32,000 nucleotides of DNA from Candidatus Saccharimonas aalborgensis. Its GTDB lineage: Bacteria > Patescibacteriota > Saccharimonadia > Saccharimonadales > Saccharimonadaceae. This document shows, one piece after another, positions 3,290 through 26,127 of this stretch. The position numbers and the translations under genes are program-made. Each line of letters starts with the position of its first letter. Within the stretch, counting starts at the first letter, position 1. The notes under the pieces were generated by a model, which was not told where the DNA came from, did not search any database, and saw only the letters and a program-made list of their open reading frames with translations. The DNA lies in contig NC_021219.1 of NCBI RefSeq assembly GCF_000392435.1, forward strand, positions 180,001 to 212,000. The letters are read 5' to 3'.

Positions 3290-3362
3290 TGTATCCTCCT
3301 CGACATTACATAGATACCAGTAGTATAGGATGTTCAAAAAATATTAGCAACGTCTGCCCTAC

Positions 3363-3391
3363 TTGTCGCGAGAACTAGGCCGTGATAGCAT
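3363..3391 (+). promoter_or_regulatory. promoter for tRNA-Gly(UCC): -35 TTGTCG, 17-nt spacer, extended -10 TGaTAGCAT
   Basis: TTGTCG at 3363..3368, TG at 3383..3384, TAGCAT at 3386..3391. The predicted TSS is about 4 nt before the tRNA 5' end. Confidence 0.4.
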
Positions 3392-3401
3392 GGACTGACA
3401 T

Positions 3402-3476
3402 GCGGGTGTAGTTTACCGTCAAAACGCTGGCCTTCCAGGCGAGAAACTCCTGGTTCAACTCCGGACACCCGCACCA
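3402..3476 (+). tRNA. tRNA-Gly (anticodon TCC), non-canonical D loop and stems, CCA encoded
   Basis: Hand fold, 75 nt: perfect acceptor GCGGGTG/CACCCGC; D arm GTTT-ACCGTCA-AAAC (no GG); anticodon arm CTGGC-CTTCCAG-GCGAG (central G/G mismatch); T arm CCTGG-TTCAACT-CCGGA (C/A at 49:65, U:G at 51:63); A73, CCA. Confidence 0.7.
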
Positions 3477-3562
3477 CAATCACAGTACATCCCTCGACGA
3501 GCTTCGCAGATGCGTGGCTCGTTTTCAAACGAGCGACTCTGGGGGTATAATGATAGAGGAAG

Positions 3563-4840
3563 ATGAAATTGATACATACAGCAAAAAAAGCCCTCTACAT
3601 TTCGGTAGCGAAGTATTTTCGTTACTGGTCAAACAAGAGCCTGCGGCGCTGGAATCCGCGAGTTATTGTCGTAACGGGGTCGGTTGGCAAGACAACCATG
3701 CTCAATCTCATCGAAACGCAGCTCGGACCGGCGGCTCACTATTCACACAATGCCAATAGTGCCTTTGGGATTGCCTTCGATATCGTGGGGATGCGTGGTA
3801 TTACCAGCAGCAAGCTGAAATGGCTGTATCTGTTCATCGCCGTCCCCCTCCGATCACTTTTTTTTACCAGACATGAAAAATATTATGTTGCCGAGATTGA
3901 CGGAGAACGCCCCCGCGAAGCCTCACTGCTTGCCGAATGGCTACGTCCCGAAGTAACTGTCTGGGTGAGCCTGGGCAGAAGCCACGCGGTGTTTTACGAT
4001 GCAGTGGTCGCAAGCGGTCGCTATGGGTCAGTCGATGAAGCTATCGCCGATGAATTCGCTTCACTTGCCCGAAACACCTCAAAGCTCGTAATCGTAGATG
4101 GCGGCAACCCGGCCATGACCACACAGATCAAAGATATTAGCGGCAAGATAGTTGCCATAACTGACGCAGCATTGCACAAATACCACGTCTCGCCTACCAG
4201 TGCATCATTTGTAATGAGTAGTGGCACATTTTCTTTTTCAGATCCAATGCCAAAAGAGACGTACGTCCAATTGGCGATGCTTGAGCAGCTCATGAACTAT
4301 CTCGCTTTGCCGATTACCCACGATGTATCGTCATTTTCGTCACCACCAGGCAGAAGTCGTCATTTTGCAGGCATCAAAGACACACACCTGATAGACAGCA
4401 GCTACAACGCACACCTCATCAGCATGCGTTCAATGATTGCGATGATGCAGGCTATGCCCGCGACGCACAAGTGGGCGGTCATCGGCGATATGGTGGAGCA
4501 AGGCAAGAGCGAGTCCGAAGAACACCGATTGCTTGGCGAGCTCCTCTCAACCACAGATTTCGAGCAAATTATTCTGGTGGGGCGACGAGTTTCTCTACAT
4601 ACTCACCCCGCTATCAGTTCATCCAACCCGCAAAGACACGTAGAATCATTTGCAAACGCACGCGATGCACTGCAATATATCGTCGATCATTTGCAGGGAA
4701 ATGAAGTCCTGCTCTTTAAGGGTAGCCAGTACCTCGAATGGATAGTCGAGAAGTTACTTCTCAACCCACAGGATGTAAGTAAATTAGCTCGCCAGGATAT
4801 TGCATCAGTTAAGCGCCGAGCATCTTGGGGGTTATCATGA
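3563..4840 (+). CDS. Mur ligase family protein, MurF-like, lacking the N-terminal UDP-binding domain
   Basis: P-loop VVTGSVGKTT at residues 36-45. DSSYNAH and GDMVEQGKSESEEH match the MurF-type motifs DDSYNAN and GDMLELG. 425 aa. Confidence 0.8.
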   Translation: MKLIHTAKKALYISVAKYFRYWSNKSLRRWNPRVIVVTGSVGKTTMLNLIETQLGPAAHYSHNANSAFGIAFDIVGMRGITSSKLKWLYLFIAVPLRSLFFTRHEKYYVAEIDGERPREASLLAEWLRPEVTVWVSLGRSHAVFYDAVVASGRYGSVDEAIADEFASLARNTSKLVIVDGGNPAMTTQIKDISGKIVAITDAALHKYHVSPTSASFVMSSGTFSFSDPMPKETYVQLAMLEQLMNYLALPITHDVSSFSSPPGRSRHFAGIKDTHLIDSSYNAHLISMRSMIAMMQAMPATHKWAVIGDMVEQGKSESEEHRLLGELLSTTDFEQIILVGRRVSLHTHPAISSSNPQRHVESFANARDALQYIVDHLQGNEVLLFKGSQYLEWIVEKLLLNPQDVSKLARQDIASVKRRASWGLS

Positions 4841-5532
4841 CAGCGCCTCTCGTCATCATCCACGGCTGGACCTACACAATTAAGCCATGGGACAAAACTG
4901 TTGCCATTCTCAAGGAGATGGGAGTGGAAGTACATCAACTCCGTGTGCCAGGACTGACACAGCCGTCTGACGCCGTGTGGACAATCGATGCGTACGTCGC
5001 CTGGCTCGATCAGGAACTACAAGCAATCCCCAATCCAATCGTCCTAGGGCATTCAAATGGTGGTCGTATTGCCATGCATTATCTAGCACAACACCCCAAT
5101 CGTTTCAAAAAGCTTATTTTGCTGAATAGTGCCGGCGTCGCTATCTCGTCAACGAGCCAGTCGCTGAAAAAAACTGCAGTGAAAGCATCAGCAAAGATAC
5201 TCAAACCGCTCAAATATATCCCTGGTGTTCGACGTGTAGTGTACCGCGCGCTAGGAAGCGACTACGGCAGAGCACCAAAAAACATGCAGGCCACACTCAA
5301 CAATATGCTAGCAGCCGATAAAGACTTCTCTCCGCGTATGATCGCTACCCCAACGATCATGCTGTGGGGGGAGTCGGATAACGTTACGTCGCTCGCAATT
5401 GGCAAAAAAATTGCCGATGAACTCCCCACGGCAACGCTCCATACCTTTCCGGGCTGGGGACATGCGCCGTACCTCACTCACCCAGAACAAGTGGCTGACG
5501 CAATTATGGCTGCCATGCAGGAGAGCGCGTGA
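4837..5532 (+). CDS. alpha/beta hydrolase
   Basis: Nucleophile elbow GHSNG, later WGESD and GWGHAPY. ATG 4837 overlaps the upstream stop (ATGA); the track start is 4825. Confidence 0.8.
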   Translation: MTAPLVIIHGWTYTIKPWDKTVAILKEMGVEVHQLRVPGLTQPSDAVWTIDAYVAWLDQELQAIPNPIVLGHSNGGRIAMHYLAQHPNRFKKLILLNSAGVAISSTSQSLKKTAVKASAKILKPLKYIPGVRRVVYRALGSDYGRAPKNMQATLNNMLAADKDFSPRMIATPTIMLWGESDNVTSLAIGKKIADELPTATLHTFPGWGHAPYLTHPEQVADAIMAAMQESA

Positions 5533-6695
5533 TTTTTCAGTCAATCGGCTCACAGTTTCGGGCCCCAGATATGTGGCGGCATCTGACTGCTCATGCTTCG
5601 CGTGATTCGTCTACGAAACTCACCCACACACTTGAGGCAACATTTGGCGGAAAGGCCTTTTTGTACCAAAATGGCAGAAGTGCGCTCGCGGCAGCCTTAA
5701 CCCAAATCGCGTTAGATCATCCAGGCGCATCGGTCGCGGTGAACGGCTATAGCTGCTTCGTCGTACAAGAAGCGGTGCATGCGGCTGGTTTGACACCAGT
5801 ATTTCTTGATATCGATCCAAACGCTCTCCATTTTTCGGGTGATACCCTAGCGAAAGCGCTCACAGAAAACACCGATATCAAAGCAGTGGTCGTTCAAAAT
5901 ACCTTAGGCATTCCGTGTGATATAGAGACGATTGAGCGAATCACTACAAAACGAAATATTTGTCTTATCGAGGACCTGGCTCATTCTGCTGGCTTACGCT
6001 ATGGCGACGGTCGTGCGGCAGGATCTGTTGGGGCCTTTGTCATCCTATCATTTGGCCGCGATAAACTACTCGATACGGTGAGTGGCGGTGCACTCATTGT
6101 GCGTCAATCAACAGATACAAGCAAATTGCCTCAGCATGAGCTACTTGCACCGCTGGGAACTCGCCTGAGAGATCGTTTGTATCCATTTTTTACCTGGATA
6201 GCACGCATGTTGTATCCGATAAAAGTTGGCGGCGTGTTACTACGGGGGCTCCTGTGGACAAAGCTCATTTCACGCTCGGCGAGCGGTAGTATCAACCCGT
6301 CCTACACGATGCCTGCTTGGCAAGCCGAATGTGCGCTCTATCGGCTGAAGGAGCTAGATCATGATATTGGTCGGCGAAAGGCGCTCCAGGAAATCTACCA
6401 AGAAAGACTACCCTCACTCATCGTAGCCGATACACCCGTGCGTGTCTCGATCATGGTAAAAGATCGTGCTGCGGTGCTGCGCGCCCTCCGTGCCCACCAC
6501 TATTATCTTGATGATATTTGGTATGATAGTCCCATCGGCCCGCGCCGGCTTTATCCCTCTGTAGCCTTTCCTGAATCACGCTGTCCTCACGCTGTCTATG
6601 CAGCAGAACACATCATCAATCTCCCGACTCATGTGTCTGTCGACAAAACAACTGCTCGACATATTGCTCAGATCATCGCCGAGGAAGAAGCATGA
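5529..6695 (+). CDS. DegT/DnrJ/EryC1/StrS-type PLP-dependent aminotransferase
   Basis: NGRSAL, LIEDLAHSAG, SFGRDK (candidate PLP lysine), GGALIV. GTG 5529 overlaps the upstream stop (GTGA). Confidence 0.75.
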   Translation: MIFQSIGSQFRAPDMWRHLTAHASRDSSTKLTHTLEATFGGKAFLYQNGRSALAAALTQIALDHPGASVAVNGYSCFVVQEAVHAAGLTPVFLDIDPNALHFSGDTLAKALTENTDIKAVVVQNTLGIPCDIETIERITTKRNICLIEDLAHSAGLRYGDGRAAGSVGAFVILSFGRDKLLDTVSGGALIVRQSTDTSKLPQHELLAPLGTRLRDRLYPFFTWIARMLYPIKVGGVLLRGLLWTKLISRSASGSINPSYTMPAWQAECALYRLKELDHDIGRRKALQEIYQERLPSLIVADTPVRVSIMVKDRAAVLRALRAHHYYLDDIWYDSPIGPRRLYPSVAFPESRCPHAVYAAEHIINLPTHVSVDKTTARHIAQIIAEEEA

Positions 6696-7693
6696 ACCAA
6701 TTCAGGATGTGTAGCGATAAGGCCACGTGGGATCGCTATCTCGCAGATTATCCTGAAGCAAATTTTTTGCAGTCATGGCAGTGGGCAGAAACATATGCTC
6801 GGCGTGGCAATACCATACTGAGGCATACGCTCACCGATGATGGTGTAGTAAAAGCAGTAGTCGCTGGCGTCACACATACTGCCCGGCGAGGAAAATATTT
6901 AGAAATCGCTGGCGGACCTTTGGTTGACTGGTCTGACACTCGCCTCGTTACTCTCCTCATGAATCATATTGCGACATTTGCCAGAGAGCAGCGGTGCGTA
7001 TTTGTGCGTATCCGACCACAAGCACAGACCGTTTCATTGACACAGTTTGGTCTCCGTCCTGCACGTATGCATCTTCATGCAGAACATACCAGCATACTAG
7101 ACATTGGCCGTGACACCGAGGTATTGCTCGCCGCCATGCGCCAACAAACGCGCTACGAGATACGACGCGCACCAAAACGCGGCATTAGCATCTCCTCAAA
7201 TAGAGCGTCGGTTGAAATTGATGAGTTCATTGAAATGCAGTACCAAACTGCCCATCGCCAGGGATTCACTCCCTCTTCGCCCGATTTCCTCCGTGAAGTT
7301 TGCCGCCAATTTGGTGACGATGCGCGTCTCTACCGCGCACAAAAAAATGGTCAGACGCTCAATCTTGCGCTTATCTTACATTTCGGTAAGGAGACGGATT
7401 ATTATGAAGCGGCCTCGATACCAGCAGCACGCAACGAACCCGGCGCTTACGCTATTTTGTGGCAGGTTATCAATGACGCCAAGCAGCGACAGATGTCGCG
7501 TGTGAACCTGTGGGGAATTGCACCGTCCAATTCCGGGCCAGCTCATCGCTACGCTCGTGTGACGACATTCAAACGTGGTTTTGGTGGCGACGACACTACC
7601 TATACACATGCTCATGATCTCGTCCTCAGGCCCATTGCCTACACAAAAAACTGGCTTGTTGAATCCATACGAAAAAAAAGGAGAAACGTATAA
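6692..7693 (+). CDS. FemAB-family (FemX-like) aminoacyl-tRNA-dependent peptidyltransferase, copy 1
   Basis: EANFLQSWQWAE, RRGKYLEIAGGP, VFVRIRPQ, NLWGI, FKRGFGG. 333 aa with no coiled-coil insert. ATG overlaps the upstream stop (ATGA). Confidence 0.8.
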   Translation: MNQFRMCSDKATWDRYLADYPEANFLQSWQWAETYARRGNTILRHTLTDDGVVKAVVAGVTHTARRGKYLEIAGGPLVDWSDTRLVTLLMNHIATFAREQRCVFVRIRPQAQTVSLTQFGLRPARMHLHAEHTSILDIGRDTEVLLAAMRQQTRYEIRRAPKRGISISSNRASVEIDEFIEMQYQTAHRQGFTPSSPDFLREVCRQFGDDARLYRAQKNGQTLNLALILHFGKETDYYEAASIPAARNEPGAYAILWQVINDAKQRQMSRVNLWGIAPSNSGPAHRYARVTTFKRGFGGDDTTYTHAHDLVLRPIAYTKNWLVESIRKKRRNV

Positions 7694-8716
7694 ATGGCAT
7701 ACGAAGTGAAAACGGTTGAATCAAAAGAGCAATGGGATTCGTTCGTCACATCACACCCCGAGGCCAACTTCCTGCAATCATGGCAGTGGGGAGAGTTTCA
7801 TACATCGCGTAGCAAAACGATCGTCCGTCGCGGTATCTACGATGACAACAAGCTTGTCGCCGTCTACACCGGACATGTCGAGCCAGCGCGTCGTGGGATT
7901 CATTTGGAAATTGCAGGTGGCCCTATCGTAGACTGGCAAAATCAGTCTCTCGTAGAGAAAGTATTTGCAGACATTGCAGATATGGCAAAAAGACTTGGCT
8001 GTGTCTATGTGCGAATCCGGCCTCAACTCCTCGATAGTCCAACCGCTCGGCATCAATTTGGCAATCTTGGTCTCAAAAAAGCGCCAATGTATCTGAGTGT
8101 GGAGCTAGCAGGTGTGATCGACCTCACAAAAACCGACCAGGAAATACTGCAGGGGATGCGCCAGCGTCTCCGACGGGCCCTCCGAAAAGCAGAAAAGAAT
8201 ACTATCACCGTCGAAAAAAGTACTGATCCTGCGGCGATAAAAGAGTTCTATAAGATTCAGCTTCAAACTGCAGGACGACATCAATTTGTAGCATTCTCGG
8301 AAGACTTCCTCACCAAGCAATTTGCAGCATTTGCAAAAGATAATTCGGCAGTCCTCTATACCGCAAAGTACCAGGGAGAGATACTTGCTCAAAACTTTAT
8401 GATATTTTATGGCAATGAAGCCTCCTACCATTATGGGGTTAGCACCGAACTCGGCACGACACTCTCTGGTGCACCACTGCTACATCTCCAGGCAATGCGC
8501 GATGCTCGCGAGCGAGGTATAACTCGTTATAACTTCTGGGGTATTGTTGACGAGACCGATACTAACCATCGATTTTACGGTGTGAGTGTCTTTAAACGCG
8601 GCTTTGGAGTTGAAGAGCTACGATACCTACCAGCCCATGATCTGATCATCAACCGCACCGCTTACCTAAAGACAAAGCTTATCGAGACGACCCGTCGAAA
8701 GATCCGACGTGTCTAA
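7694..8716 (+). CDS. FemAB-family (FemX-like) aminoacyl-tRNA-dependent peptidyltransferase, copy 2
   Basis: EANFLQSWQWGE, RRGIHLEIAGGP, VYVRIRPQ, NFWGI, FKRGFG. 340 aa. ATG immediately follows the upstream TAA. Confidence 0.8.
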   Translation: MAYEVKTVESKEQWDSFVTSHPEANFLQSWQWGEFHTSRSKTIVRRGIYDDNKLVAVYTGHVEPARRGIHLEIAGGPIVDWQNQSLVEKVFADIADMAKRLGCVYVRIRPQLLDSPTARHQFGNLGLKKAPMYLSVELAGVIDLTKTDQEILQGMRQRLRRALRKAEKNTITVEKSTDPAAIKEFYKIQLQTAGRHQFVAFSEDFLTKQFAAFAKDNSAVLYTAKYQGEILAQNFMIFYGNEASYHYGVSTELGTTLSGAPLLHLQAMRDARERGITRYNFWGIVDETDTNHRFYGVSVFKRGFGVEELRYLPAHDLIINRTAYLKTKLIETTRRKIRRV

Positions 8717-8753: not shown

Positions 8754-9890
8754 GTGAAACATATCTATGAGATACCGGTGGCACCCTGGCTCGCTACATT
8801 GAGTACAAAAATTGGTATGCCGATCACGCTCGCAACTATTCCAGAGGATGTTGTCGAGCAGATAGTCTCTTATCACATGGATACGGTATGGCTGATGGGG
8901 GTATGGCAACGCAGTGAAGTAGCGGCCGAGATTAGTCGAGCTGATGAGCAACTCTGGCACGAGGTTGTCGGAATCCTCCCCGACGCCACCAAAGACGATA
9001 TCATAGGATCGGCCTATGCAGTAAAAGCCTATCGTGTTGACCAACGATTCGGCGGCGAAGATGGTTTGGCGATTTTTCGAGAGCAGTTGCGTGCCCGCGG
9101 TGTCAAGCTTCTGCTCGATTTTGTCCCCAATCACACGTCATTTGATGCACCATGGCTAAAGACAGACCCCGAGTATTACATTGCCGCTCGCCGAGATGAT
9201 GCCAACGAACACCCTGAGCGCTACTACCAAACGGAGCAAGTCTGTATTGCCAAAGGTGCCGACCCAAACCTGCCACCATGGCCTGACGTCGCTCAGGTAA
9301 ACGCCTTTTCGTCAGCATACCGCCTTGAGAGCAGTCTGACTCTGCAATATATCGCCAGTCTCTGTGATGGTGTACGCTGTGATATGGCGATGCTTCTCCT
9401 GAACGACGTCGTCGAACATACTTGGGCCGAAAAAGCGGGTCAACGACCCACTGAAGAATACTGGTCAGAGGTTATTGGCTCGGTAAAGGCGCTTTATCCA
9501 TCATTTATTTTTATTGCTGAGTGCTACTGGGACACGGAACGCACTCTCCTAGAGCTGGGCTTTGATTACTGTTATGACAAACGTCTTTACGATGCTATGG
9601 TTGCTCGCGATGAGAGCGCTATCGATAATCGTCTCAGTGTACTGTCGGATGTCGCACCCCATCTGGTGTACTTCCTCGAGAATCATGATGAAGCGCGAGC
9701 AGCGACCGTCTTTAGTCCAGATGAGCAGACGCGGTATGCCCGAAAAATTATTACATCGCCAGGAGTTTGCTTATGGTATGATGGCCAATTTGTCGGCAAT
9801 CAGGCGAAGCTTCCTACCCATATTGGACGTGCACCGATCGAAAAGCCAAACGACGAAATTTGCGATATTTACAGAGAGTTACTCGTCTAA
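8754..9890 (+). CDS. GH13 alpha-amylase-family glycoside hydrolase (catalytic domain only)
   Basis: GH13 regions I-IV: DFVPNH, GVRCDMA, IAECYW, FLENHDE. GTG start. Confidence 0.8.
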   Translation: MKHIYEIPVAPWLATLSTKIGMPITLATIPEDVVEQIVSYHMDTVWLMGVWQRSEVAAEISRADEQLWHEVVGILPDATKDDIIGSAYAVKAYRVDQRFGGEDGLAIFREQLRARGVKLLLDFVPNHTSFDAPWLKTDPEYYIAARRDDANEHPERYYQTEQVCIAKGADPNLPPWPDVAQVNAFSSAYRLESSLTLQYIASLCDGVRCDMAMLLLNDVVEHTWAEKAGQRPTEEYWSEVIGSVKALYPSFIFIAECYWDTERTLLELGFDYCYDKRLYDAMVARDESAIDNRLSVLSDVAPHLVYFLENHDEARAATVFSPDEQTRYARKIITSPGVCLWYDGQFVGNQAKLPTHIGRAPIEKPNDEICDIYRELLV

Positions 9891-11537
9891 ATCTTTTTTC
9901 AGCGGGTGCTCACTACACTCGACAATGACACCCTCGAACGGGCGCAACATGATTGTGCCGTCTTCGGCAATTTCCGGATAATCAACCGGATGCGTACAAC
10001 ACAGAATACGTCCTTTATGTGGAAGTTTCACCGTATTATCAAGTCGTCCGAAATTGAGAGCAACGTAGATATGCTGATCACCCAACCAGCGAGCATACGA
10101 GAATACATCGGCCTCAAGCTCGCCAATCGCCTCATAGGTACCAGTCCGCAAAATCTCATAACGGCTTCTCATGCGCAGGAGTCGACGATATAGTGACAAA
10201 AAAGAGTCGGCTTCGTGTTGTTGTGTTTCAACATTGTGATGTCGTACAGACTCCCCTAATGGTAACCAGGGTTTTGCCTTACTAAATCCTGCATATTGAC
10301 CCGTCTGCCACTGCATTGGTGTCCGCTCTGGATCACGCGTCGAATCGATATCTCCTGATGTAAACGCTCGTAGGTCTTGGATATCCTCCTGTTTAACTGG
10401 GGTATTGGGCATACCCAATTCGTCACCATAGTACACCGTCGGCAAACCGGGTAGTGACAGAAGGAGGAGTGCCATCAAACGGGCCTGCTCATCACCGCCC
10501 ATTCTTGAGACTAACCGTGATTGGTCGTGATTACCAAAGCAGTACACGGGTGTATGCTCATCGGGATCAAGCATTCCCTGAAACTCAGTGATAAATGTGC
10601 GGAACGCATCGGCATAAAAGTCGGTCCACACGCCCTCGAAGTTAAATGGCATCGCTACTTTAGGATTGACACCATAAAAGCCAAGGTATTGCTCTTTTGT
10701 GCTGTAATTGGCGTCAGGATAGTCTTCGAATATCATGATACGATTATCGTATTCGGCAACAACATCAGTAAGCTCACGAAGATAGGGGAAAAGATTTTTC
10801 CAGAAACGACTATATTTATGAATGTAGTGGTTGTACTCACCCTCTGTCCCGTCCATCGCCTTTCTGACAATTTCTGTCAAAGGATCGTTTCGGAACTTCG
10901 GGTCTTTACTTAGCCAGCGTACCGCGTCCGCGCGAATACCATCGATACCGAGATCGAGCCAAAAGCGTACCACGCGTTTCATTTCATCGCGTACCATAGG
11001 GTTGTCCCAATTAAGATCGGGTTGCGCCGCCAGAAAGGTGTGGAGATAGTATTGGTTACGACCATCATCATACTCCCAGGCAGAGCCCCCAAAAATACTC
11101 AGCCAATTGTTTGGTGGACCACCTCCAGGAGCGGGATCTCGCCATGTGTAATACTCTGCGTAAGGTCCCTTTCTTGATTTACGTGATTCCTTAAACCATT
11201 CATGCTGGTCACTGGTGTGATTTGGCACAAAATCGATCATGACGTTTATATTTCGTGCATGCGCTTTCTCGATGAGCTCCTTAAAATCATCTAGCGTCCC
11301 AAATAGTGGATCAATATCACAGTAGTCGCTCACGTCATAGCCCATATCTGCCATCGGTGAAGGAAATATCGGTGAAAACCATATTGCATCAATATCCAGC
11401 GAATCTTTTTGGCCTTTTATGTAGTCCAGACGGTCGATAACACCCCGAATGTCACCTACACCGTCGTTATTCGCATCCATGAAACTACGTGGGTATATCT
11501 GATATATTGCGTTCACATCTCGCCAAGAAAGACTCAT
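9879..11537 (-). CDS. GH13 alpha-glucosidase (oligo-1,6-glucosidase / trehalose-6-phosphate hydrolase subfamily)
   Basis: YQIYPRSF, NNDGVGDIRG, DFVPNHTSDQHEWF, GIRADAV, FGNHDQSR. 552 aa. Confidence 0.9.
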   Translation of the reverse strand: MSLSWRDVNAIYQIYPRSFMDANNDGVGDIRGVIDRLDYIKGQKDSLDIDAIWFSPIFPSPMADMGYDVSDYCDIDPLFGTLDDFKELIEKAHARNINVMIDFVPNHTSDQHEWFKESRKSRKGPYAEYYTWRDPAPGGGPPNNWLSIFGGSAWEYDDGRNQYYLHTFLAAQPDLNWDNPMVRDEMKRVVRFWLDLGIDGIRADAVRWLSKDPKFRNDPLTEIVRKAMDGTEGEYNHYIHKYSRFWKNLFPYLRELTDVVAEYDNRIMIFEDYPDANYSTKEQYLGFYGVNPKVAMPFNFEGVWTDFYADAFRTFITEFQGMLDPDEHTPVYCFGNHDQSRLVSRMGGDEQARLMALLLLSLPGLPTVYYGDELGMPNTPVKQEDIQDLRAFTSGDIDSTRDPERTPMQWQTGQYAGFSKAKPWLPLGESVRHHNVETQQHEADSFLSLYRRLLRMRSRYEILRTGTYEAIGELEADVFSYARWLGDQHIYVALNFGRLDNTVKLPHKGRILCCTHPVDYPEIAEDGTIMLRPFEGVIVECSEHPLKKDLDE

Positions 11538-13144
11538 TGCTTTTCTCCTTCATCATCCAACGCTGCATAGACGCCGTTTGTCCAGCCAAAGCCATCCTGA
11601 ACCTCATACTCTCCGCCACCACCCAGTTCTCCGGGATGAACGACGTTGTATTTTTCAATCATTTTTTGATACTTTGCATACACTAAGTCGTTTGCGAGTA
11701 GCCAACGGCGTCGAATTTCATTGGCAAGTTCATGATACCCATATTCCCTCAGGCCGTGGATTGCCACCCACTGAAGAGGCGCCCAGCCATTTGGTGCATC
11801 CCACTGCTGTCCGCTTGTAACAAGGGTTGTTACAAGTCCACCGGGCTTCAGAAAGTCGGTTTCAATTCGCTTCGCTAAAAAGGCTGCTTGCTCCTTCGTA
11901 GCAATTTTTGTATAGAGAGGAAACAATCCTGCCAAGGTTACTCGTCCGCTTGAATTATATGTCGACGTGTCATAATCACAAAAAAACCGTTCCGATTCAT
12001 CCCAGCAATATCGCCGAATAGTCTCTGCTCGCCGCTCAGCAGCTTTTCGAAACGACGTAGCCAGGAGGGGCTGCTTGATAAGTGTGTAGGCTTCTGCGAT
12101 GGTGGATTCAAGCGTATAAAGCATACTGTTGAGGTCAATTGCCGCCATGTTTGTGGTCTGAATTGATTGAATTTCATCCGCCACGCGAAACCAGCGTGAG
12201 CTAAAATCCCAACCACTCTCAGCGCCTGCCCGTAAGTTAAGATAGAGCTGTTCTTTAGCGTTCTCGTCACTGATATTCTGAGCTGTTTGTCGGTCCTCAC
12301 GGCTCATCTCGGGACGTGGTGTGTGCCTATCATCAAAGTATCGCCCAAGCAGCGCACCGTTTGGCATCCGTACTAATCGATTGTGGAGCGTTGGGGTGCT
12401 CTGCTTCATCGCCTCCCGTCGTCCGTGCGTCCAAAAACGGTATTCGATAAGCAAATATGGAAGGAACTCAGCGTATGTCCGCGTGCGCCCCCTACGCTTC
12501 GCTAGCAATATTATCATTTGAGCAAAAAACGGCGGCTGGGAGCGACTAAGGAAATAGCTGCGGCTAGCATTGGGGATCCTCCCATACTTTCGTAGCATAT
12601 AGGCATGGTTTCGTACCATACCAAGAAGTATGTCCCACTTATCGTCAGCAGCAAGACCGAGCATGATAAAGTAACTATCCCAATAAAACTGTTCGTCAAA
12701 CCTTCCCCCCGGCACGACATACGTATAGGGGAGTGCGAGTAACGAACCGTGTTGTTTTCTATTGGTACGTTCTAGGTAGGGCCATAGTTGCCGTATATGT
12801 TCACGCGCAGTCGCCGCAGTAGCAGGCAAACTCCCTGACTTCTTGTTTAGGATAGGCTGTGCCTCAAAGTTAGTATCTACGAAGTCCTTGAGGGAAAAAC
12901 CAGCCTGTTGCCGCTGCACTTCATATTGTTTTTTTATTTTTTTGCCCTTTGGAACCATATCAACAAATCGTTTTCCATCGCCCAAAACTTGAGTAACTTG
13001 AACATCTTTAAGAAGATCACCATAGCTATCCTCGGGACTCTGAGGCGTTCGGCCCAGGGTACCCGCCACTGCAACATATGTCGATTTCACTTTTTCGACA
13101 TGACGGCGAGATGTTTGTTTTTTTCGCAAAATGCGCCTAAACAT
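11534..13144 (-). CDS. trehalase (GH37)
   Basis: Both trehalase signatures are present: PGGRFDEQFYWDSYF and QWDAPNGWAPLQW. Its stop overlaps the downstream start (ATGA). Confidence 0.9.
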   Translation of the reverse strand: MFRRILRKKQTSRRHVEKVKSTYVAVAGTLGRTPQSPEDSYGDLLKDVQVTQVLGDGKRFVDMVPKGKKIKKQYEVQRQQAGFSLKDFVDTNFEAQPILNKKSGSLPATAATAREHIRQLWPYLERTNRKQHGSLLALPYTYVVPGGRFDEQFYWDSYFIMLGLAADDKWDILLGMVRNHAYMLRKYGRIPNASRSYFLSRSQPPFFAQMIILLAKRRGRTRTYAEFLPYLLIEYRFWTHGRREAMKQSTPTLHNRLVRMPNGALLGRYFDDRHTPRPEMSREDRQTAQNISDENAKEQLYLNLRAGAESGWDFSSRWFRVADEIQSIQTTNMAAIDLNSMLYTLESTIAEAYTLIKQPLLATSFRKAAERRAETIRRYCWDESERFFCDYDTSTYNSSGRVTLAGLFPLYTKIATKEQAAFLAKRIETDFLKPGGLVTTLVTSGQQWDAPNGWAPLQWVAIHGLREYGYHELANEIRRRWLLANDLVYAKYQKMIEKYNVVHPGELGGGGEYEVQDGFGWTNGVYAALDDEGEKQ

Positions 13145-21397: not shown

Positions 21398-22201
21398 ATG
21401 CGCGAACGACAACATGAAATTATCGAGAAGCTCGGTGTCAAACCAATAATAGATCCACGCGAAGAAGTAGAACAACGTACCCACCTCCTTGCCAGCTATT
21501 TGCGCGAGCATCACAGAGCCGGATACACACTAGGCATATCAGGTGGGCAGGATTCACTTCTCGTGGGGCTACTCGCGCAGCGGGCGGTCATGCTCAATCG
21601 AACCCTTGGCTATGACTCGACATTTTCGGCAATACTACTCCCCTATGGCACACAGGCCGATAGAGCTGATGCGCTGCTAGCAATTGATACGATCAAGCCT
21701 GATCATACTATCGATTTTAATATTGCCTCCGTTGTGGACGCGTTTGTATCCTCATATGATGCCGCAAGTGGGGAATCATTGACCGATTTTCACAAAGGAA
21801 ACGTCAAAGCGCGAACTCGGATGATGGCACAATATGCAGTTGCCGGCATGCATGATCAAGTCGTACTCAGTACAGACCATGCCGCTGAAGCCTTGGTTGG
21901 ATTCTTTACAAAATTTGGTGATGGTGCCGCCGATGTCGCTCCTATCGCCACGCTCAATAAACGTCAAGGTAGACAAGTGCTACGCTTCCTTGATGTACCC
22001 GAGGTATTTATTACAAAAGTGCCGACTGCTGACCTGCTCGATGCTACTCCTTCTCAGCCAGACGAAGTTGAACTAGGAATGACCTACGAAGATTTCGATG
22101 ATTATCTCGAAGGTTTTGAAGTTCCCGAAGAGAAAGCTATTGCTATTGAGCGCAGGCATGCTGCCATCTTGCACAAGCTCGAGCCAATTGTGAGGTTTTA
22201 G
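21398..22201 (+). CDS. nadE: NH3-dependent NAD+ synthetase
   Basis: PP-loop GISGGQDS; 267 aa, the typical length for single-domain NadE. Confidence 0.9.
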   Translation: MRERQHEIIEKLGVKPIIDPREEVEQRTHLLASYLREHHRAGYTLGISGGQDSLLVGLLAQRAVMLNRTLGYDSTFSAILLPYGTQADRADALLAIDTIKPDHTIDFNIASVVDAFVSSYDAASGESLTDFHKGNVKARTRMMAQYAVAGMHDQVVLSTDHAAEALVGFFTKFGDGAADVAPIATLNKRQGRQVLRFLDVPEVFITKVPTADLLDATPSQPDEVELGMTYEDFDDYLEGFEVPEEKAIAIERRHAAILHKLEPIVRF

Positions 22202-22250
22202 TCAATTATGTCGGATTGTTGAGTGCCTTTTCAAACGATCTATTGTATTG

Positions 22251-22256
22251 TAGACT
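22251..22256 (+). promoter_or_regulatory. -10-like TAGACT, 6 nt upstream of the nrtR ATG (leaderless configuration)
   Basis: Read directly: TTGTAGACTtagtgtATG. The same TAGACT hexamer serves as the -10 of the pnuC promoter. Confidence 0.4.
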
Positions 22257-22276
22257 TAGTGTATGAAGTACAGTAG
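22256..22276. promoter_or_regulatory. candidate NrtR operator covering the nrtR TSS and start codon (autoregulation)
   Basis: TTAGTGTA-tgaag-TACAgTAg. The ATG at 22263 lies inside the left arm. Confidence 0.5.
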
Positions 22277-22940
22277 CCCCTATGTCCCACCTACACTGAC
22301 CGTTGACGCTGTTATATTTCAACTTCACGGTGATAAACTAGAGGTTCTCCTCACCCAGCGTGAAAGCGATCCTTTCAAGGGGGAGTGGGCACTACCGGGT
22401 GGATACAATGCTGTCGGCAGCACTACCATTGAGGCACTTACTGAAATTGTTTTGCGCAAGACGGGCGTTGATCTCGACAACGATCTCGCTTATATCGAAC
22501 AGCTCTATACGTTTGACACGGTCGCTCGCGATCCGAGAGGACATGCCGTATCTGTTACCTATATGGGCTGTAGTCGAGCTATCACCCTCGGTACCGGCAG
22601 CCAGCATGCTGAGTTTTTTCCCGTCGATAGGCTTCCCAATCTCGCCTATGACCATGCGAGCATCATCACCTATGCCCAGGAACGTCTCGCAGCAAAGCTC
22701 ACCTATACCAATGCCGTGTCGGGGTTACTCGACAAGAAGTTTACGCTTTCCCAGCTGCAAACAGCATATGAGGCGGTGATGGGACGCTTGCTCGATAAAC
22801 GAAACTTCCGCAAAAAGTTTCTCACGCTCAATCTCATTCATGAGACGCCAGATACCTGGCGAGATGGTGCGCATCGCCCAGCAAAGTTATATGCATTCAA
22901 TTCGTCAAGCCTTGAGGTTCTTTCTCGAAGTTTCGACTAG
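22263..22940 (+). CDS. nrtR: NrtR-type transcriptional regulator (degenerate Nudix domain plus C-terminal winged helix)
   Basis: Nudix fold with a degenerate box (PGGYNAVGSTTIEALTEIVLRKTGV, which lacks the REx2EE signature). C-terminal FTLSQLQTAYEAVMGRLLDKRNFRKKF is typical of NrtR. Confidence 0.8.
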   Translation: MKYSSPYVPPTLTVDAVIFQLHGDKLEVLLTQRESDPFKGEWALPGGYNAVGSTTIEALTEIVLRKTGVDLDNDLAYIEQLYTFDTVARDPRGHAVSVTYMGCSRAITLGTGSQHAEFFPVDRLPNLAYDHASIITYAQERLAAKLTYTNAVSGLLDKKFTLSQLQTAYEAVMGRLLDKRNFRKKFLTLNLIHETPDTWRDGAHRPAKLYAFNSSSLEVLSRSFD

Positions 22941-23041
22941 CTAACACATAACATACACACCATCTCAATTCCCTATGCAAAACAGTGTGGCCAGAAAACA
23001 CACAATAGGGTAAATGGGTTCATATTCTGACAAATTGTTGA

Positions 23042-23062
23042 ATAGCGTTGACAATACACTAT
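23042..23062. promoter_or_regulatory. candidate NrtR operator (weak) overlapping the pnuC -35
   Basis: aTAGcGTt-gacaa-TACACTAt. Confidence 0.35.
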
Positions 23063-23076
23063 TCGCTTGGTAGACT
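23048..23076 (+). promoter_or_regulatory. pnuC promoter: -35 TTGACA, 17-nt spacer, -10 TAGACT
   Basis: TTGACA at 23048..23053 and TAGACT at 23071..23076. Confidence 0.55.
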
Positions 23077-23084
23077 GAAATTAG

Positions 23085-23105
23085 TTAGTGTAATATGTAC
23101 AATTA
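23085..23105. promoter_or_regulatory. candidate NrtR operator just downstream of the pnuC TSS
   Basis: TTAGTGTA-atatg-TACAaTtA. Confidence 0.5.
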
Positions 23106-23125
23106 GTACGGGAAGGAACACTCCA

Positions 23126-23845
23126 ATGAAAAAACTATTAACCACTAGTCGGGTCAGCAATACGCGAGATATCGCGGAAAGTGTATTTATAGGAGTTATC
23201 CTGACTACGCTTTCCTATGTCGTAGGTCTAAACGCCGGATGGGTTTCAAGTCTTAATCTGCTCGAGATTTTTGCCGTTTTTACCTCCTACTCAAGCACTT
23301 ATCTCTGCGTAAAAGAGCGACGCGCAAATTACCCGATCGGCGCTATCAGTACGGCCGCGTATATGCTACTGTTTCTGCAAAATGGGCTACTTGCCAGCGC
23401 CATTCTCAATGCTTATCTCACCCCCACGCTCATCTATGGGTGGATCAGGTGGCGCAAAGACAAGCAAACACGACCTGTCACCCACGTGCAACTTCAGTGG
23501 ATACCTGTCTATCTAGCCGTAGCTGGTGTCGGCTACGCTGGAGCAGCACTCATCAGTCAACAATTTGGCGGCACTATGGCATGGACGGATTCGATGATTT
23601 TGGCTGCTACCATTCTGGCTCAATTTTTGCTTGACAACAAAAAGCTAGAAAACTGGGTTGTATGGGCCGTTGTCAATGTGTTTGCTATCTATACCTACGC
23701 CACCACTGGACTACCACTTGTCGCCTTCCAATATGTGTTTTTCCTCCTCAACACAGTGTATGGATTTATGATGTGGCAACGGAGTAAAAAGATAACCGAC
23801 ACTCTACCGACTCACGCTGATACCGGCGTTCCCATGGAGGCATAG
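23126..23845 (+). CDS. pnuC: nicotinamide riboside transporter PnuC
   Basis: IYGWIRWRK and AQFLLDNKKLENWVVWAVVNV motifs; about 7 TM. ATG 23126 has a GGAAGGA SD; the track TTG start at 23048 lies inside the promoter. Confidence 0.85.
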   Translation: MKKLLTTSRVSNTRDIAESVFIGVILTTLSYVVGLNAGWVSSLNLLEIFAVFTSYSSTYLCVKERRANYPIGAISTAAYMLLFLQNGLLASAILNAYLTPTLIYGWIRWRKDKQTRPVTHVQLQWIPVYLAVAGVGYAGAALISQQFGGTMAWTDSMILAATILAQFLLDNKKLENWVVWAVVNVFAIYTYATTGLPLVAFQYVFFLLNTVYGFMMWQRSKKITDTLPTHADTGVPMEA

Positions 23846-23846
23846 C

Positions 23847-24386
23847 ATGAAACCATTTACCGTTACCATCATTGGCGCAGAGTCCACCGGCAAAACGAGT
23901 CTTTCTCGCCAGCTTGCCGATACAATGGATGGTGACTGGGTTCCTGAATTCGCCCGCCCCTACCTTGAAGTTACCGACGGCATCACAAATATCAGCTCGA
24001 TGCTCGCAATATGGCAAGGGCAACTAGCACTGCAACACGTTGCCACACAGTCGCCGCGACCGTACGTTATCCTCGACACCGATCTCTATGCAACTGTTGG
24101 TTACTGGAAGCTCCCGCAGAGCAAATCGTATCTTGGCGCATGTCCTGAAAAACTTATAGAAGACGCCGCATTATACCAATCAAACCTTTATCTCGTCACG
24201 CAAAGTAACATTCCCTTTGAGCCAGATGCGCTACGCTATGGCGGCGACAAACGAGAAAGCACAGATGAGTATTGGATACGACTCTGCAAAAGCTATCAAC
24301 TACCCTACCATGTTATATCGGCAGCTAACCGTGATGAGCGCTTAGCTGAAGCAATTGGCATCATAAACGAAAGGAGTGCACAATGA
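23847..24386 (+). CDS. stand-alone NadR-type ribosylnicotinamide-kinase-like P-loop protein (intact Walker A)
   Basis: IIGAESTGKTSL Walker A, ILDTD, and FEPDALRYGGDKRES (LID-like). It can be aligned to the C-terminal domain of NadR. Confidence 0.75.
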   Translation: MKPFTVTIIGAESTGKTSLSRQLADTMDGDWVPEFARPYLEVTDGITNISSMLAIWQGQLALQHVATQSPRPYVILDTDLYATVGYWKLPQSKSYLGACPEKLIEDAALYQSNLYLVTQSNIPFEPDALRYGGDKRESTDEYWIRLCKSYQLPYHVISAANRDERLAEAIGIINERSAQ

Positions 24387-25354
24387 AAGGTCTTGTTATC
24401 GGAAAGTTTTACCCACCTCACCTTGGGCACAACTACCTTATCGATACCGCCCTCAAGAACTGTGAGTCTGTCGACGTGCTCGTCGTTGATAACCCGGCAT
24501 ATCACATTGCTGCCGAGAAGCGACGCGAGTGGCTTCAGGCTCGCCACCCTACTGCCCACGTTACCATTATCCCTGATATCAATAATGACGATGACTCGGT
24601 GGCGTGGGCCGCACATACGATGCAGTTTCTCGGCTACAAACCTGATGTTGTCTATAGCTCCGAAGACTATGGTGACCCATGGGCGCGGTATATGGGTGCG
24701 CAAAGTATCGTTGTCGACAAAGCACGTACTGCCGTACCAATTTCAGGCACAAAAGTTCGTGAGGATATGCTTGCTTCCTGGCAGTATCTTTCGGACGAGA
24801 CAAAGGCCGGACTAGCACTTCGCATCGTCATCGTCGGTGCCGAGTCAACTGGTACAACGACTCTGTCGAGAGACCTAGCCGCCGCGCTCAACGCACCGTG
24901 GGCACCCGAGATTGGTAGATACTACACCGAATCGATTTTGACGACCGACAAAGCATGGTGCGACGATGACTTTTATCGAATCGGTAAATTACAACAAAAC
25001 TACGAGGCGGAAATGGCAAAACGCAGTGACGGCGTTGTCGTGTGTGATACCAATGCGGTCGCGACAGAACTCTGGCAACGCCGCTATATGGGGCGTACTA
25101 CGAAGGCCATGCACGCTATTGCCGCCCAGGATAAAGCTGATCTTTATATTATTACCGGCGATGAAATCCCGTTTGTACAAGATGGTATCCGCGACGGTGA
25201 GCACATCAGACATCGCATGCACCAATGGTTTATCGGCCATATCAAAAAAACAGGAATCCCTTACATCATTGTTTCTGGAACGCGAAGGCAACGTCTCCGC
25301 AAAGCCCATCAAGTCTCGAAAAAAATGATACGAGAGAAAAAAGTTATTTTTTAA
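24383..25354 (+). CDS. nadR: NadR-like NMN adenylyltransferase fused to an RNK-like domain with a degenerate Walker A; no HTH
   Basis: GKFYPPHLGH (HxGH) and ISGTKVR (ISSTxxR-like) mark the NMNAT domain. The second domain has VGAESTGTTTL, where the P-loop Lys is Thr. ATG overlaps the upstream stop (ATGA). Confidence 0.8.
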   Translation: MKGLVIGKFYPPHLGHNYLIDTALKNCESVDVLVVDNPAYHIAAEKRREWLQARHPTAHVTIIPDINNDDDSVAWAAHTMQFLGYKPDVVYSSEDYGDPWARYMGAQSIVVDKARTAVPISGTKVREDMLASWQYLSDETKAGLALRIVIVGAESTGTTTLSRDLAAALNAPWAPEIGRYYTESILTTDKAWCDDDFYRIGKLQQNYEAEMAKRSDGVVVCDTNAVATELWQRRYMGRTTKAMHAIAAQDKADLYIITGDEIPFVQDGIRDGEHIRHRMHQWFIGHIKKTGIPYIIVSGTRRQRLRKAHQVSKKMIREKKVIF

Positions 25355-25361
25355 TAAAAAA

Positions 25362-25382
25362 TTAGTGTTCAAATCACACTAA
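25362..25382. promoter_or_regulatory. candidate NrtR operator upstream of pncA
   Basis: TTAGTGTt-caaat-cACACTAA. The perfect 8-bp arms are ATTAGTGT/ACACTAAT, 18 nt upstream of ATG 25400. Confidence 0.65.
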
Positions 25383-25399
25383 TATATAAAGGAGTTGTT

Positions 25400-26125
25400 A
25401 TGAAAACAAGTAAAGAAACGAGCAGGATATATGGCGAAGTAGTCGCCATCAATGTTGACTTACAAAATGACTTTTGTCCGGGCGGAAGCCTCGCTGTTGA
25501 GGACGGAGATCGAGTGATCGAGCCGATAAATAGGCTCAGTGCTTGGGTGCGAGAACACGGCGGTATGGTCGTCGACACCGCCGATGAACATCCGAAAGTA
25601 ACAAATCATTTCGCTGAGTATGGGGGGACATGGCCGGTCCACTGTGTCGTAGATACCCCAGGTGCCGCCCTACACCGCAATCTGACCATCGAACCATCAG
25701 ATGCCCTAGCCCGAAAAGGTGTAGCGCCTAACGACGCGGGGTACTCAGGCTATGACGCTGTCTTAAAACCACGTGCTACCGTGCCCAACGATATCGTCAG
25801 TGATCTCCCAGAAGAGGAACAGACGGTCGGCAGATTCCTGGAAAGAGTGGTGCGAGTTAACCGTAGTCTTGGTTCAAGGACACTTATCCTCCTCACAGGA
25901 CTGGCTGGTGACTACTGCGTATCGGCAACGGGACGACCCATCCTTGAGAAGCTCCCATCAGAATGGACAGACCTCATCTGGGTGAGTGATGCGATTCGGA
26001 GCGTCAATCAAGAAAATGGTGAGATTGAAAAACAAGCCTCGATTGAAGCAGGTGCCTTGGTTATGACAACGGAAGAAATCTTAGCCGGAGGCATTGTCAT
26101 TGATCGTGGGCGCCTGGAGAACTAG
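25400..26125 (+). CDS. pncA: nicotinamidase (isochorismatase family)
   Basis: VDLQNDFCPGGSLAV and LTGLAGDYCVSAT (catalytic Cys). AAAGGAG SD. Confidence 0.85.
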   Translation: MKTSKETSRIYGEVVAINVDLQNDFCPGGSLAVEDGDRVIEPINRLSAWVREHGGMVVDTADEHPKVTNHFAEYGGTWPVHCVVDTPGAALHRNLTIEPSDALARKGVAPNDAGYSGYDAVLKPRATVPNDIVSDLPEEEQTVGRFLERVVRVNRSLGSRTLILLTGLAGDYCVSATGRPILEKLPSEWTDLIWVSDAIRSVNQENGEIEKQASIEAGALVMTTEEILAGGIVIDRGRLEN

Positions 26126-26127
26126 CC

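Follow-up and report, generated by a model that had tools for sequence, protein, structure and literature searches.

A predicted five-gene operon

We analysed a 32,000-nucleotide stretch of the Candidatus Saccharimonas aalborgensis genome (contig NC_021219.1, positions 180,001 to 212,000; hereafter the window), in which five plus-strand open reading frames (ORFs) of 425, 231, 388, 333 and 340 amino acids (aa) span positions 3563–8716. The predicted products are a Mur-type ligase (called A-type below), an alpha/beta hydrolase, a DegT-like pyridoxal phosphate (PLP) enzyme and two Fem proteins. A preliminary description of this DNA, made from its letters alone, stated that the five ORFs are chained by overlapping or abutting stop and start codons, and direct reading confirmed all four junctions (ATGA at 4837, GTGA at 5529, ATGA at 6692 and TAAATG at 7691). 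A promoter-like site upstream of the ligase matched the consensus at 10 of 12 positions and was the sole plus-strand match between 3300 and 9000; it is a consensus match only. The ligase ATG is preceded by a Shine-Dalgarno-like GAGGAAG. No convincing terminator was found inside the operon, and an Rfam scan returned tRNAs only, with no leader or riboswitch. Because the junctions overlap or abut, a single promoter-like site lies upstream and no convincing internal terminator was found, the five genes are predicted to form one operon, with the following features:

3522..3551, plus strand: promoter-like site (TTTTCA/TTCAAA, spacer, TATAAT at 3546–3551), between tRNA-Gly and the ligase start
3563–4840, plus strand: ligase, 425 aa, predicted A-type MurF-derived ATP-dependent amide ligase
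4837–5532, plus strand: hydrolase, 231 aa from ATG, esterase-like alpha/beta hydrolase
5529–6695, plus strand: DegT-like PLP enzyme, 388 aa, divergent member of the DegT/DnrJ/EryC1 family
6692–7693, plus strand: Fem1, 333 aa, FemABX family, FemX-sized
7694–8716, plus strand: Fem2, 340 aa, tandem paralog of Fem1

An alternative TTG start at 4825 would give a hydrolase of 235 aa. Public gene calls start the DegT-like protein at ATG 5571 (374 aa); we favoured the overlapping GTG at 5529 because a GGAG lies 6–11 nt upstream of it and the first residues that it adds are conserved among orthologs. No other mur or dcw gene was found in the window. The same gene order recurred in approximately 130 independent loci, with ligases 41–97% identical to that of the window, and the arrangement is therefore far beyond chance. 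A ligase with 97% identity was found in a metagenome-assembled genome (MAG) of Candidatus Saccharimonas aalborgensis.

The ligase and its partner proteins

The ligase was assigned to the Mur ligase superfamily, as its C-terminal domain scored above the Pfam cut-off (Mur_ligase_C, PF02875, 46.8 bits against 28.4), its central domain was marginal (Mur_ligase_M, PF08245, 21.4 bits, below the cut-off of 24) and a fold search agreed. The best hidden Markov model (HMM) match was to MurF (TIGR01143), at 110 bits against a cut-off of 288.6, and the MurF equivalogs PRK10773 and PRK14093 gave 48–54 bits against cut-offs of 544–551. The best sequence match was E. coli MurF (1GG4). When an AlphaFold2 (AF2) model of the ligase (pLDDT 89.7) was compared with known structures by Foldseek, the top matches were MurF structures (4qf5, 3zl8 and 1gg4; E 1e-20 to 1e-16), followed by MurT, MurC and MurE; the matches to all four extended over about 410 columns with E values of 1e-20 to 1e-11.

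The MurF-type motifs and early P-loop noted in the preliminary description were found at residues 38–45 (TGSVGKTT), 278–284 (DSSYNAH) and 308–314 (GDMVEQG). GKT at 42–44, E111, H141, R264, D278, N282 and GDMVEQG align with E. coli MurF and are invariant in the family, and the second Asn of YNAN is His in this ligase. The ligase thus shares with MurF its central and C-terminal architecture, the P-loop, both catalytic residues (Glu and His) and four further motifs (PGR, D-S-x-Y-N, GDMxE(L/Q)G and KGS). Its ATP site and MurF-type C-terminal motifs are retained, and its central domain has diverged. It differs from MurF in its N-terminus. Residue 32 of the ligase aligns with residue 100 of E. coli MurF, and matches to MurF HMMs start no earlier than about position 100; therefore domain 1 is absent, and the protein departs from the three-domain architecture of MurF. 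In place of domain 1, the AF2 model has one long N-terminal helix (residues 2–30) before the P-loop strand. Alignment, HMM start and model accordingly agree with the earlier remark that the protein has no room for domain 1.

This loss had been considered a possible clue to the substrate, and proved uninformative in that respect, since the MurE proteins (397–403 aa) and housekeeping MurF proteins (399–428 aa) of Saccharibacteria and other members of the candidate phyla radiation (CPR) lack domain 1 as well. We therefore rejected the idea that it signals a non-nucleotide substrate. In Southlakia epibionticum ML1, the central domain begins at residue 22 of the 403-aa MurE (SEML1_0049) and at residue 29 of a 426-aa MurF-like protein (SEML1_0599), the latter encoded near leuS and tRNA-Phe (PMC10633639 supplements). 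Domain-1-less MurE and MurF are the norm in this lineage and should not be annotated as truncated proteins or pseudogenes. The CPR domain-1-less MurE even scores above the MurE cut-off (L171, 544–3746; Southlakia SEML1_0049). Another departure from the usual architecture was seen in L171, where a 670-aa MurC is fused to a GlmU-type uridyltransferase domain.

The preliminary description also asked whether a separate murF exists in a dcw cluster elsewhere in the genome. A second MurF-like gene does coexist with the A-type ligase in relatives; in Saccharibacteria it adjoins leuS and does not lie in a classical dcw cluster. One Saccharibacteria contig (L049) carries the A-type ligase and, 6 kb away, another MurF-like ligase that is also short (B-type, 428 aa), scores 163 bits to TIGR01143 and shares 23% identity with the ligase of the window. 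Genes of the B-type are widespread in Saccharibacteria, where they adjoin leuS and PGAP names them MurF. On a 1.08-Mb metagenomic CPR contig (L171), the A-type ligase scored 125 bits to TIGR01143, against 269 bits for a 399-aa B-type ortholog that adjoins mraY. We had considered that the A-type ligase of L171 might be MurF by elimination; NCBIfam typing instead assigned the 399-aa ligase beside mraY as the MurF ortholog and a 397-aa ligase as MurE. In L049 and L171 the A-type ligase is therefore not the sole MurF-type gene, as both carry a closer MurF, which in L171 is the one beside mraY. In Southlakia, the B-type gene SEML1_0599 is essential by transposon sequencing (Tn-seq), the Mur ligase C-terminal domain occurs in only four proteins (MurC, D, E and F) besides MurT/GatD, and no A-type ligase was found in the annotation (PMC10633639 supplements). 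These comparisons bear out the ligase as an extra MurF-like paralog, and we conclude from the sequence data that it is a predicted fifth Mur ligase, derived from MurF and distinct from the housekeeping MurF. Public names for the A-type family are inconsistent (P0497, P0499 and P0460) and include 'hypothetical protein', 'Mur ligase family protein', 'MurF', 'glutamate ligase domain-containing protein' and 'cyanophycin synthetase'. As a result, two different families are both now labelled 'MurF', 'hypothetical' or even 'cyanophycin synthetase'.

The hydrolase belongs to the alpha/beta hydrolases (Abhydrolase_1, PF00561, 69.3 bits; PF12697, 56.9 bits). Its triad motifs are a GHSNGG nucleophile elbow, the Asp of WGESD and the His of GWGHAPY, and GHSNGG, WG..D and W.H are conserved in 80 orthologs. 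In a sequence search of the Protein Data Bank (PDB), its nearest solved relatives were small, generic carboxylesterases. Hydrolases with a low-complexity C-terminal tail of 160–250 residues, rich in Lys, Ala and Ser, were seen in three Saccharibacteria loci (L053, 6774–7964; L079, 11269–12726; L081, 2635–3924).

The pairing of ligase and hydrolase resembles lipid II isoglutamine synthase, MurT/GatD, in which a domain-1-less subunit of Mur-ligase fold modifies a stem-peptide carboxylate together with a hydrolytic partner that is obligate and co-transcribed, and MurT structures were the second-best fold group for the A-type ligase. However, the partner here is a Ser-His-Asp esterase-like protein (Abhydrolase_1/6), whereas that of MurT is a class-I glutamine amidotransferase; the A-type C-terminal domain is MurF-type (PF02875), whereas that of MurT is DUF1727, which places the ligase outside the MurT family; and at least one Saccharibacterium, Southlakia, has a separate MurT/GatD.

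The DegT-like protein scored 116.2 bits against DegT_DnrJ_EryC1 (PF01041; cut-off 19.8). It has the PLP lysine in LSFGRDK, and both LSFG..K and EDLAH are conserved in 41 orthologs. With the sugar aminotransferases PseC, LegC, ArnB and WecE it shares the PLP-binding large domain, the catalytic Lys and the Asp-containing EDxAH. The resemblance ends there: only the N-terminal large domain aligned with known sugar aminotransferases in the PDB search, the C-terminal half did not align, and the equivalogs gave at most 80 bits against cut-offs of 375–650. The cassette enzyme also stands in a mur context, and no linked dehydratase (including 4,6-dehydratase), oxidoreductase for an NDP-keto-sugar or other sugar-nucleotide gene was found in about 130 cassette neighbourhoods.

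Fem1 and Fem2 matched FemAB (PF02388) in three stretches each, at 126.6 and 134.4 bits (cut-off 24), and also matched Acetyltransf_6. They share 38% identity over their full length and are diverged tandem paralogs, as previously proposed. The best PDB match was Weissella viridescens FemX for Fem1 (E 2e-10) and S. aureus FemX (6snr) for Fem2 (E 2e-17). The earlier statement that both are FemX-sized without a coiled-coil insert also held: both are close to 335 aa, and about 67 residues of coiled coil are missing from Fem2, where the junction 226/227 spans residues 233–300 of S. aureus FemX. Like Weissella FemX and S. aureus FemX/A/B, the two proteins have the two-GNAT-domain fold family, FemX size and the FKRGFG C-terminal motif, and their tandem arrangement suggests successive additions, as in S. 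aureus. They differ in that they scored only 29–67 bits to any solved member and 48.7 and 55.1 bits to the Weissella FemX equivalog (NF047883; cut-off 500), and in that their operon also contains genes for a Mur-type ligase, a PLP enzyme and an esterase. Among Saccharibacteria orthologs, Fem1 showed 40–52% identity and Fem2 55–75%, so Fem2 is the more conserved copy. We infer only from family membership and mur context that the Fem proteins would acylate an amine of a peptidoglycan precursor with aminoacyl-tRNA.

Conservation and genomic context of the cassette

An exhaustive HMMER search for the A-type ligase gave 81 representative clusters at E<1e-30, all with the same short N-terminus. We had considered the A-type ligase to be Saccharibacteria-specific, which was wrong: named members came from Levybacteria, 'Patescibacteria group' and Saccharimonadales, and the family spans Levybacteria and other Patescibacteria. 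Neighbourhoods were sampled from 80 GTDB species loci, 80 metagenome loci and several single contigs. In the 140 loci whose sequence extends at least 0.9 kb downstream of the ligase, the next gene encoded an alpha/beta hydrolase in 130, ddl followed in 7, and nothing recognisable in 3. A longer downstream stretch (at least 3.6 kb) was available for 114 loci; the order after the ligase was hydrolase-DegT-Fem-Fem in 35, hydrolase-DegT-Fem in 32, hydrolase-Fem-Fem-B' in 35, ddl-alr in 2 and a minor variant in 10. From these counts, the ancestral unit is reconstructed as ligase-hydrolase-DegT-Fem, with a duplication of Fem in Saccharibacteria. The window operon therefore reads as the duplicated-Fem variant of a Patescibacteria-wide cassette and not as a peculiarity of Saccharibacteria.

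Conservation of the operon composition, which the preliminary description had left to be checked, was thus evident from the recurring order and from the position of the hydrolase next to the ligase. In four natural proteins (P0268, P0269, P0281 and P0391), ligase and hydrolase are fused; the DegT gene follows both fusions whose context was read (P0268 and P0391), and a Fem gene also follows in P0268. The hydrolase, which follows the ligase in nearly all loci and is sometimes fused to it, is therefore predicted to be its obligate partner. Known Mur-pathway fusions, such as MurF::Alr (NF008897), MurC::Ddl (NF011171) and MurE::MurF (NF008896), likewise join enzymes of the same pathway, except that the fused partner here is an alpha/beta hydrolase. 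We found no description of a Mur ligase::alpha/beta hydrolase fusion in the literature, including a survey of Mur chimeras (PMC10214165). Except in one Saccharibacteria subclade, DegT is a constant part of the cassette. With the hydrolase fused to the ligase in relatives and DegT in the ancestral cassette, both appear to share the pathway of the operon, contrary to the earlier concern that they might merely be co-located.

A large subgroup of Saccharibacteria, including many MAGs from ruminant and other animal guts, has lost DegT and kept the rest. In these DegT-less loci (L001, 14126–15744, and 36 similar loci), fem2 is followed by a DUF308 membrane gene and then by a gene for a 320-aa reduced MurF-like (B-like) protein, whose P-loop is degenerate (GSYGRKS) and whose C-terminal domain is shortened; this protein may be a non-catalytic or specialised paralog. 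Insertions between fem1 and fem2 were also seen, namely a plus-strand gene for a TMEM43-family membrane protein with two transmembrane segments (L008, 12964–13836; L016; L045) and a minus-strand gene whose unrelated product of about 280 aa has a hydrophobic segment at its N-terminus and may be secreted (L074, 8300–9121; L076; L053).

The cassette often lies among murA, B, C, E, F, mraY and murI. In L171, the order is short MurE (391 bits), GlmU::MurC, MurB, MurA, A-type ligase, hydrolase, DegT and Fem, followed by the 269-bit MurF-like ligase, MraY and glutamate racemase (MurI). In nine Saccharibacteria loci the gene immediately upstream of the ligase is a short murE, and in other CPR loci the cassette has murC, murI or mraY as a neighbour. 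No glycosyltransferase, dehydratase, flippase or polymerase/polymer-export gene was linked in about 130 loci. From its mur-gene neighbours and the absence of linked sugar and export genes, the cassette is therefore placed in cytoplasmic peptidoglycan precursor synthesis. The preliminary description had left the target open between peptidoglycan and an amino-sugar-containing wall polymer; the recurrent mur linkage backs the former, and the latter lacks a glycosyltransferase or dehydratase partner. Both Fem genes of Southlakia are Tn-seq-essential, and one of them abuts murE (PMC10633639 supplements). Six loci (L037, L041, L044, L065, L068 and L069) carry a third, distant Fem paralog (27–30% identity) on the minus strand, about 3 kb upstream; it is oriented divergently from, and upstream of, a short murE that directly precedes the ligase. 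This arrangement mirrors the murE/fem pair of Southlakia.

A different set of genes follows the ligase in one subgroup. Here ddl stands in place of hydrolase-DegT-Fem, and alr was also present where there was enough DNA (ddl in L089–92, 94, 98, 99 and L170; alr in L089 and L170). The ddl-followed ligases lie within the family and neighbour one another in the leaf order of an unbootstrapped neighbour-joining tree. In L168, which is closely related to the window, a divergently oriented 263-aa ORF (3333–4124, minus strand) lies between an SPFH gene and the ligase. The N-terminal domain of this ORF is Ddl-like (32% identity over 128 aa), and the rest of it did not match. It may be the relic of a former ddl-ligase linkage; the window has only a tRNA at this position. 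Neither ddl nor alr was found in the window or within 10 kb of the 130 cassette loci. The annotation of Southlakia contains no D-Ala-D-Ala ligase, alanine racemase or glutamate racemase, although its MurF is essential (PMC10633639 supplement). Because of the ddl linkage and the MurF-type C-terminal motifs, the data suggest that the incoming substrate of the ligase would be a D-Ala-type unit, and the hydrolase and PLP enzyme may stand in for the usual suppliers of that unit.

Possible function of the cassette and neighbouring genes

Taken together, the cassette is probably an accessory module for tailoring the peptide of the peptidoglycan precursor, working beside the normal Mur pathway. Fem1 and Fem2 would each transfer one residue from aminoacyl-tRNA onto the side-chain amine of the stem-peptide diamino acid. 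Because both lack the coiled-coil arm, they would probably act, like Weissella FemX, on soluble UDP-MurNAc-peptide. The A-type ligase, complexed with the hydrolase, would attach a D-Ala-type unit, either an amino acid or a dipeptide, to a free precursor carboxylate at the expense of ATP, and the hydrolase and PLP enzyme would prepare the incoming unit, in the slot held by ddl and alr in one ligase subgroup.

Several observations weigh against this assignment. A cell with a normal MurF has no evident need for a second MurF-type ligase. The hydrolase, in its likeness to generic carboxylesterases, offers no clear role, and DegT-family enzymes normally act on keto-sugars, not on amino acids. The loss of DegT in the host-associated Saccharibacteria subclade indicates that this enzyme is not strictly required. 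Southlakia has an essential wall and two Fem proteins without the A-type ligase, the hydrolase or the cassette DegT; therefore, the ligase-hydrolase-DegT trio is dispensable for basic wall synthesis and Fem function is separable from it. The replacement at the ddl-alr slot could be no more than a product of wall genes being shuffled between operons. Every locus was retrieved through its similarity to the ligase, so that the statements on ddl, alr and other MurF proteins cover these loci only.

The most conventional alternative is that the A-type ligase is the MurF of the organism (UDP-MurNAc-tripeptide:D-Ala-D-Ala ligase) or an isozyme, in an ordinary murF-femX operon with two passenger genes. 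MurF was its best HMM, sequence and fold match, the MurF-signature C-terminal motifs are kept, and ddl, which encodes the classical supplier of the MurF substrate, follows the ligase in seven loci, with alr seen only where there was enough DNA (L089 and L170). The A-type ligase also retains the conserved His and the YN motif, both of which are lost from the B-type MurF of Saccharibacteria. Nevertheless, its score falls far below the TIGR01143 cut-off, a better MurF coexists beside mraY in L171, both types occur on the L049 contig, and Southlakia has an essential B-type MurF and no annotated A-type ligase. The fusion of the hydrolase to the ligase and the fixed position of DegT argue that these two are not passengers, and we regard this explanation as quite unlikely. 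We consider very improbable a third possibility, that the cassette decorates an amino-sugar-containing wall polymer or exopolysaccharide (EPS), with DegT making the amino sugar, Fem aminoacylating it and the ligase extending it. The DegT family normally makes NDP-amino sugars, a similar decoration role has been proposed for FemAB proteins of PEP-CTERM/EPS loci, and both Fem proteins scored 42–45 bits against the EPS-associated TIGR03019, close to their scores against Weissella FemX. The neighbourhoods point the other way, as no dehydratase, glycosyltransferase, flippase or polymerase gene is linked in about 130 loci and the recurrent neighbours are mur genes and mraY; moreover, the Southlakia Fem genes are essential and the cassette persists after the loss of DegT.

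A further alternative assigns the partner genes to substrate supply: the hydrolase, DegT and Fem would together provide, independently of Ddl and Alr, the C-terminal unit for the A-type ligase. In this scheme, Fem would use aminoacyl-tRNA to make an intermediate, either peptide or ester; its stereochemistry or amine would be set by the PLP enzyme, and release of the unit would fall to the esterase. Across the 140 loci, the position after the ligase is taken by the hydrolase-led set (130) or by ddl, with alr where there was enough DNA (7), never by both, and each set has one PLP enzyme and one bond-forming enzyme. The fusion of the hydrolase to the C-terminus of the ligase mirrors that of MurF::Alr. 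In the L171 cluster, genes for almost all of the precursor pathway are present, that for MurI among them, but ddl and alr are absent, in keeping with the cassette loci as a whole and with the Southlakia annotation, and Fem2 weakly matched structures described as 'aminoacyl-tRNA-dependent peptide synthase' (9wqy and 9wqw). On the other hand, Southlakia lacks both the trio and ddl/alr and yet has an essential MurF and two essential Fem proteins, so that Fem works without the trio and another source of D-Ala must exist. Many Saccharibacteria have lost DegT, tRNA-borne residues are L and not D, and we know of no precedent for a racemase in the DegT family. The absence of ddl and alr was established only for the retrieved loci. 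This route is, in our judgement, rather improbable.

Each of the four protein families in the cassette has been described before, and textbooks cover both tRNA-dependent branch synthesis and Mur-type ligation. As far as our literature searches show, the novelty lies in the conserved cassette itself, in a MurF-derived fifth ligase with an obligate and sometimes fused esterase partner, in a DegT-fold enzyme fixed in a mur context and in the alternative ddl-alr arrangement; searches on Saccharibacteria or CPR with FemX, murF, ddl or alanine racemase found nothing on the cassette. Patescibacteria (CPR) account for a large part of bacterial diversity, and to our knowledge their wall chemistry has never been determined. 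A conserved four-gene unit set in their mur clusters, with a predicted fifth Mur ligase and an obligate esterase partner, suggests either that the wall is modified or that precursors are supplied by another route, which current pathway maps do not show. A broader proposal, unlikely as we see it, is that many Patescibacteria run a Ddl/Alr-independent precursor branch, in which an esterase-coupled second MurF-type ligase installs a unit made via a DegT-fold PLP enzyme and Fem. If it were true, the stem peptide or its terminus would be unlike any textbook chemotype, and a DegT-family enzyme would have its first amino-acid or peptide role. Culturable Saccharibacteria exist both with the cassette (e.g., relatives of L001-type loci) and without it (Southlakia), so that their muropeptides can be compared and the enzymes assayed.

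A tRNA-Gly(UCC) gene lies at 3402–3476 on the same strand, 87 nt upstream of the ligase, and a tRNA-Gly(CCC) gene at 1670–1744, 1.8 kb further upstream. We rejected tRNA-Gly(UCC) as a dedicated Fem substrate, since the adjacency recurred only in the closest relative (L002) and did not hold in 33 other loci. The operon is followed at 8754–13144 by three glycoside-hydrolase genes, encoding a GH13-like protein of 378 aa (plus strand), a full GH13 alpha-amylase-family protein (minus strand) and a trehalase (minus strand); they are not conserved beside the cassette in other genomes. The GH13-like gene (8754–9890) was rejected as a sixth operon member, as it recurred only in L002 and was absent elsewhere. 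Positions 21398–28856 hold a compact cluster for NAD salvage and regulation, which encodes NAD synthase, an NrtR-type Nudix regulator, a PnuC-type NMN transporter, two AAA_28 (NadR-like kinase) proteins, an isochorismatase/nicotinamidase-like protein, NAPRTase and a Nudix-APH fusion.

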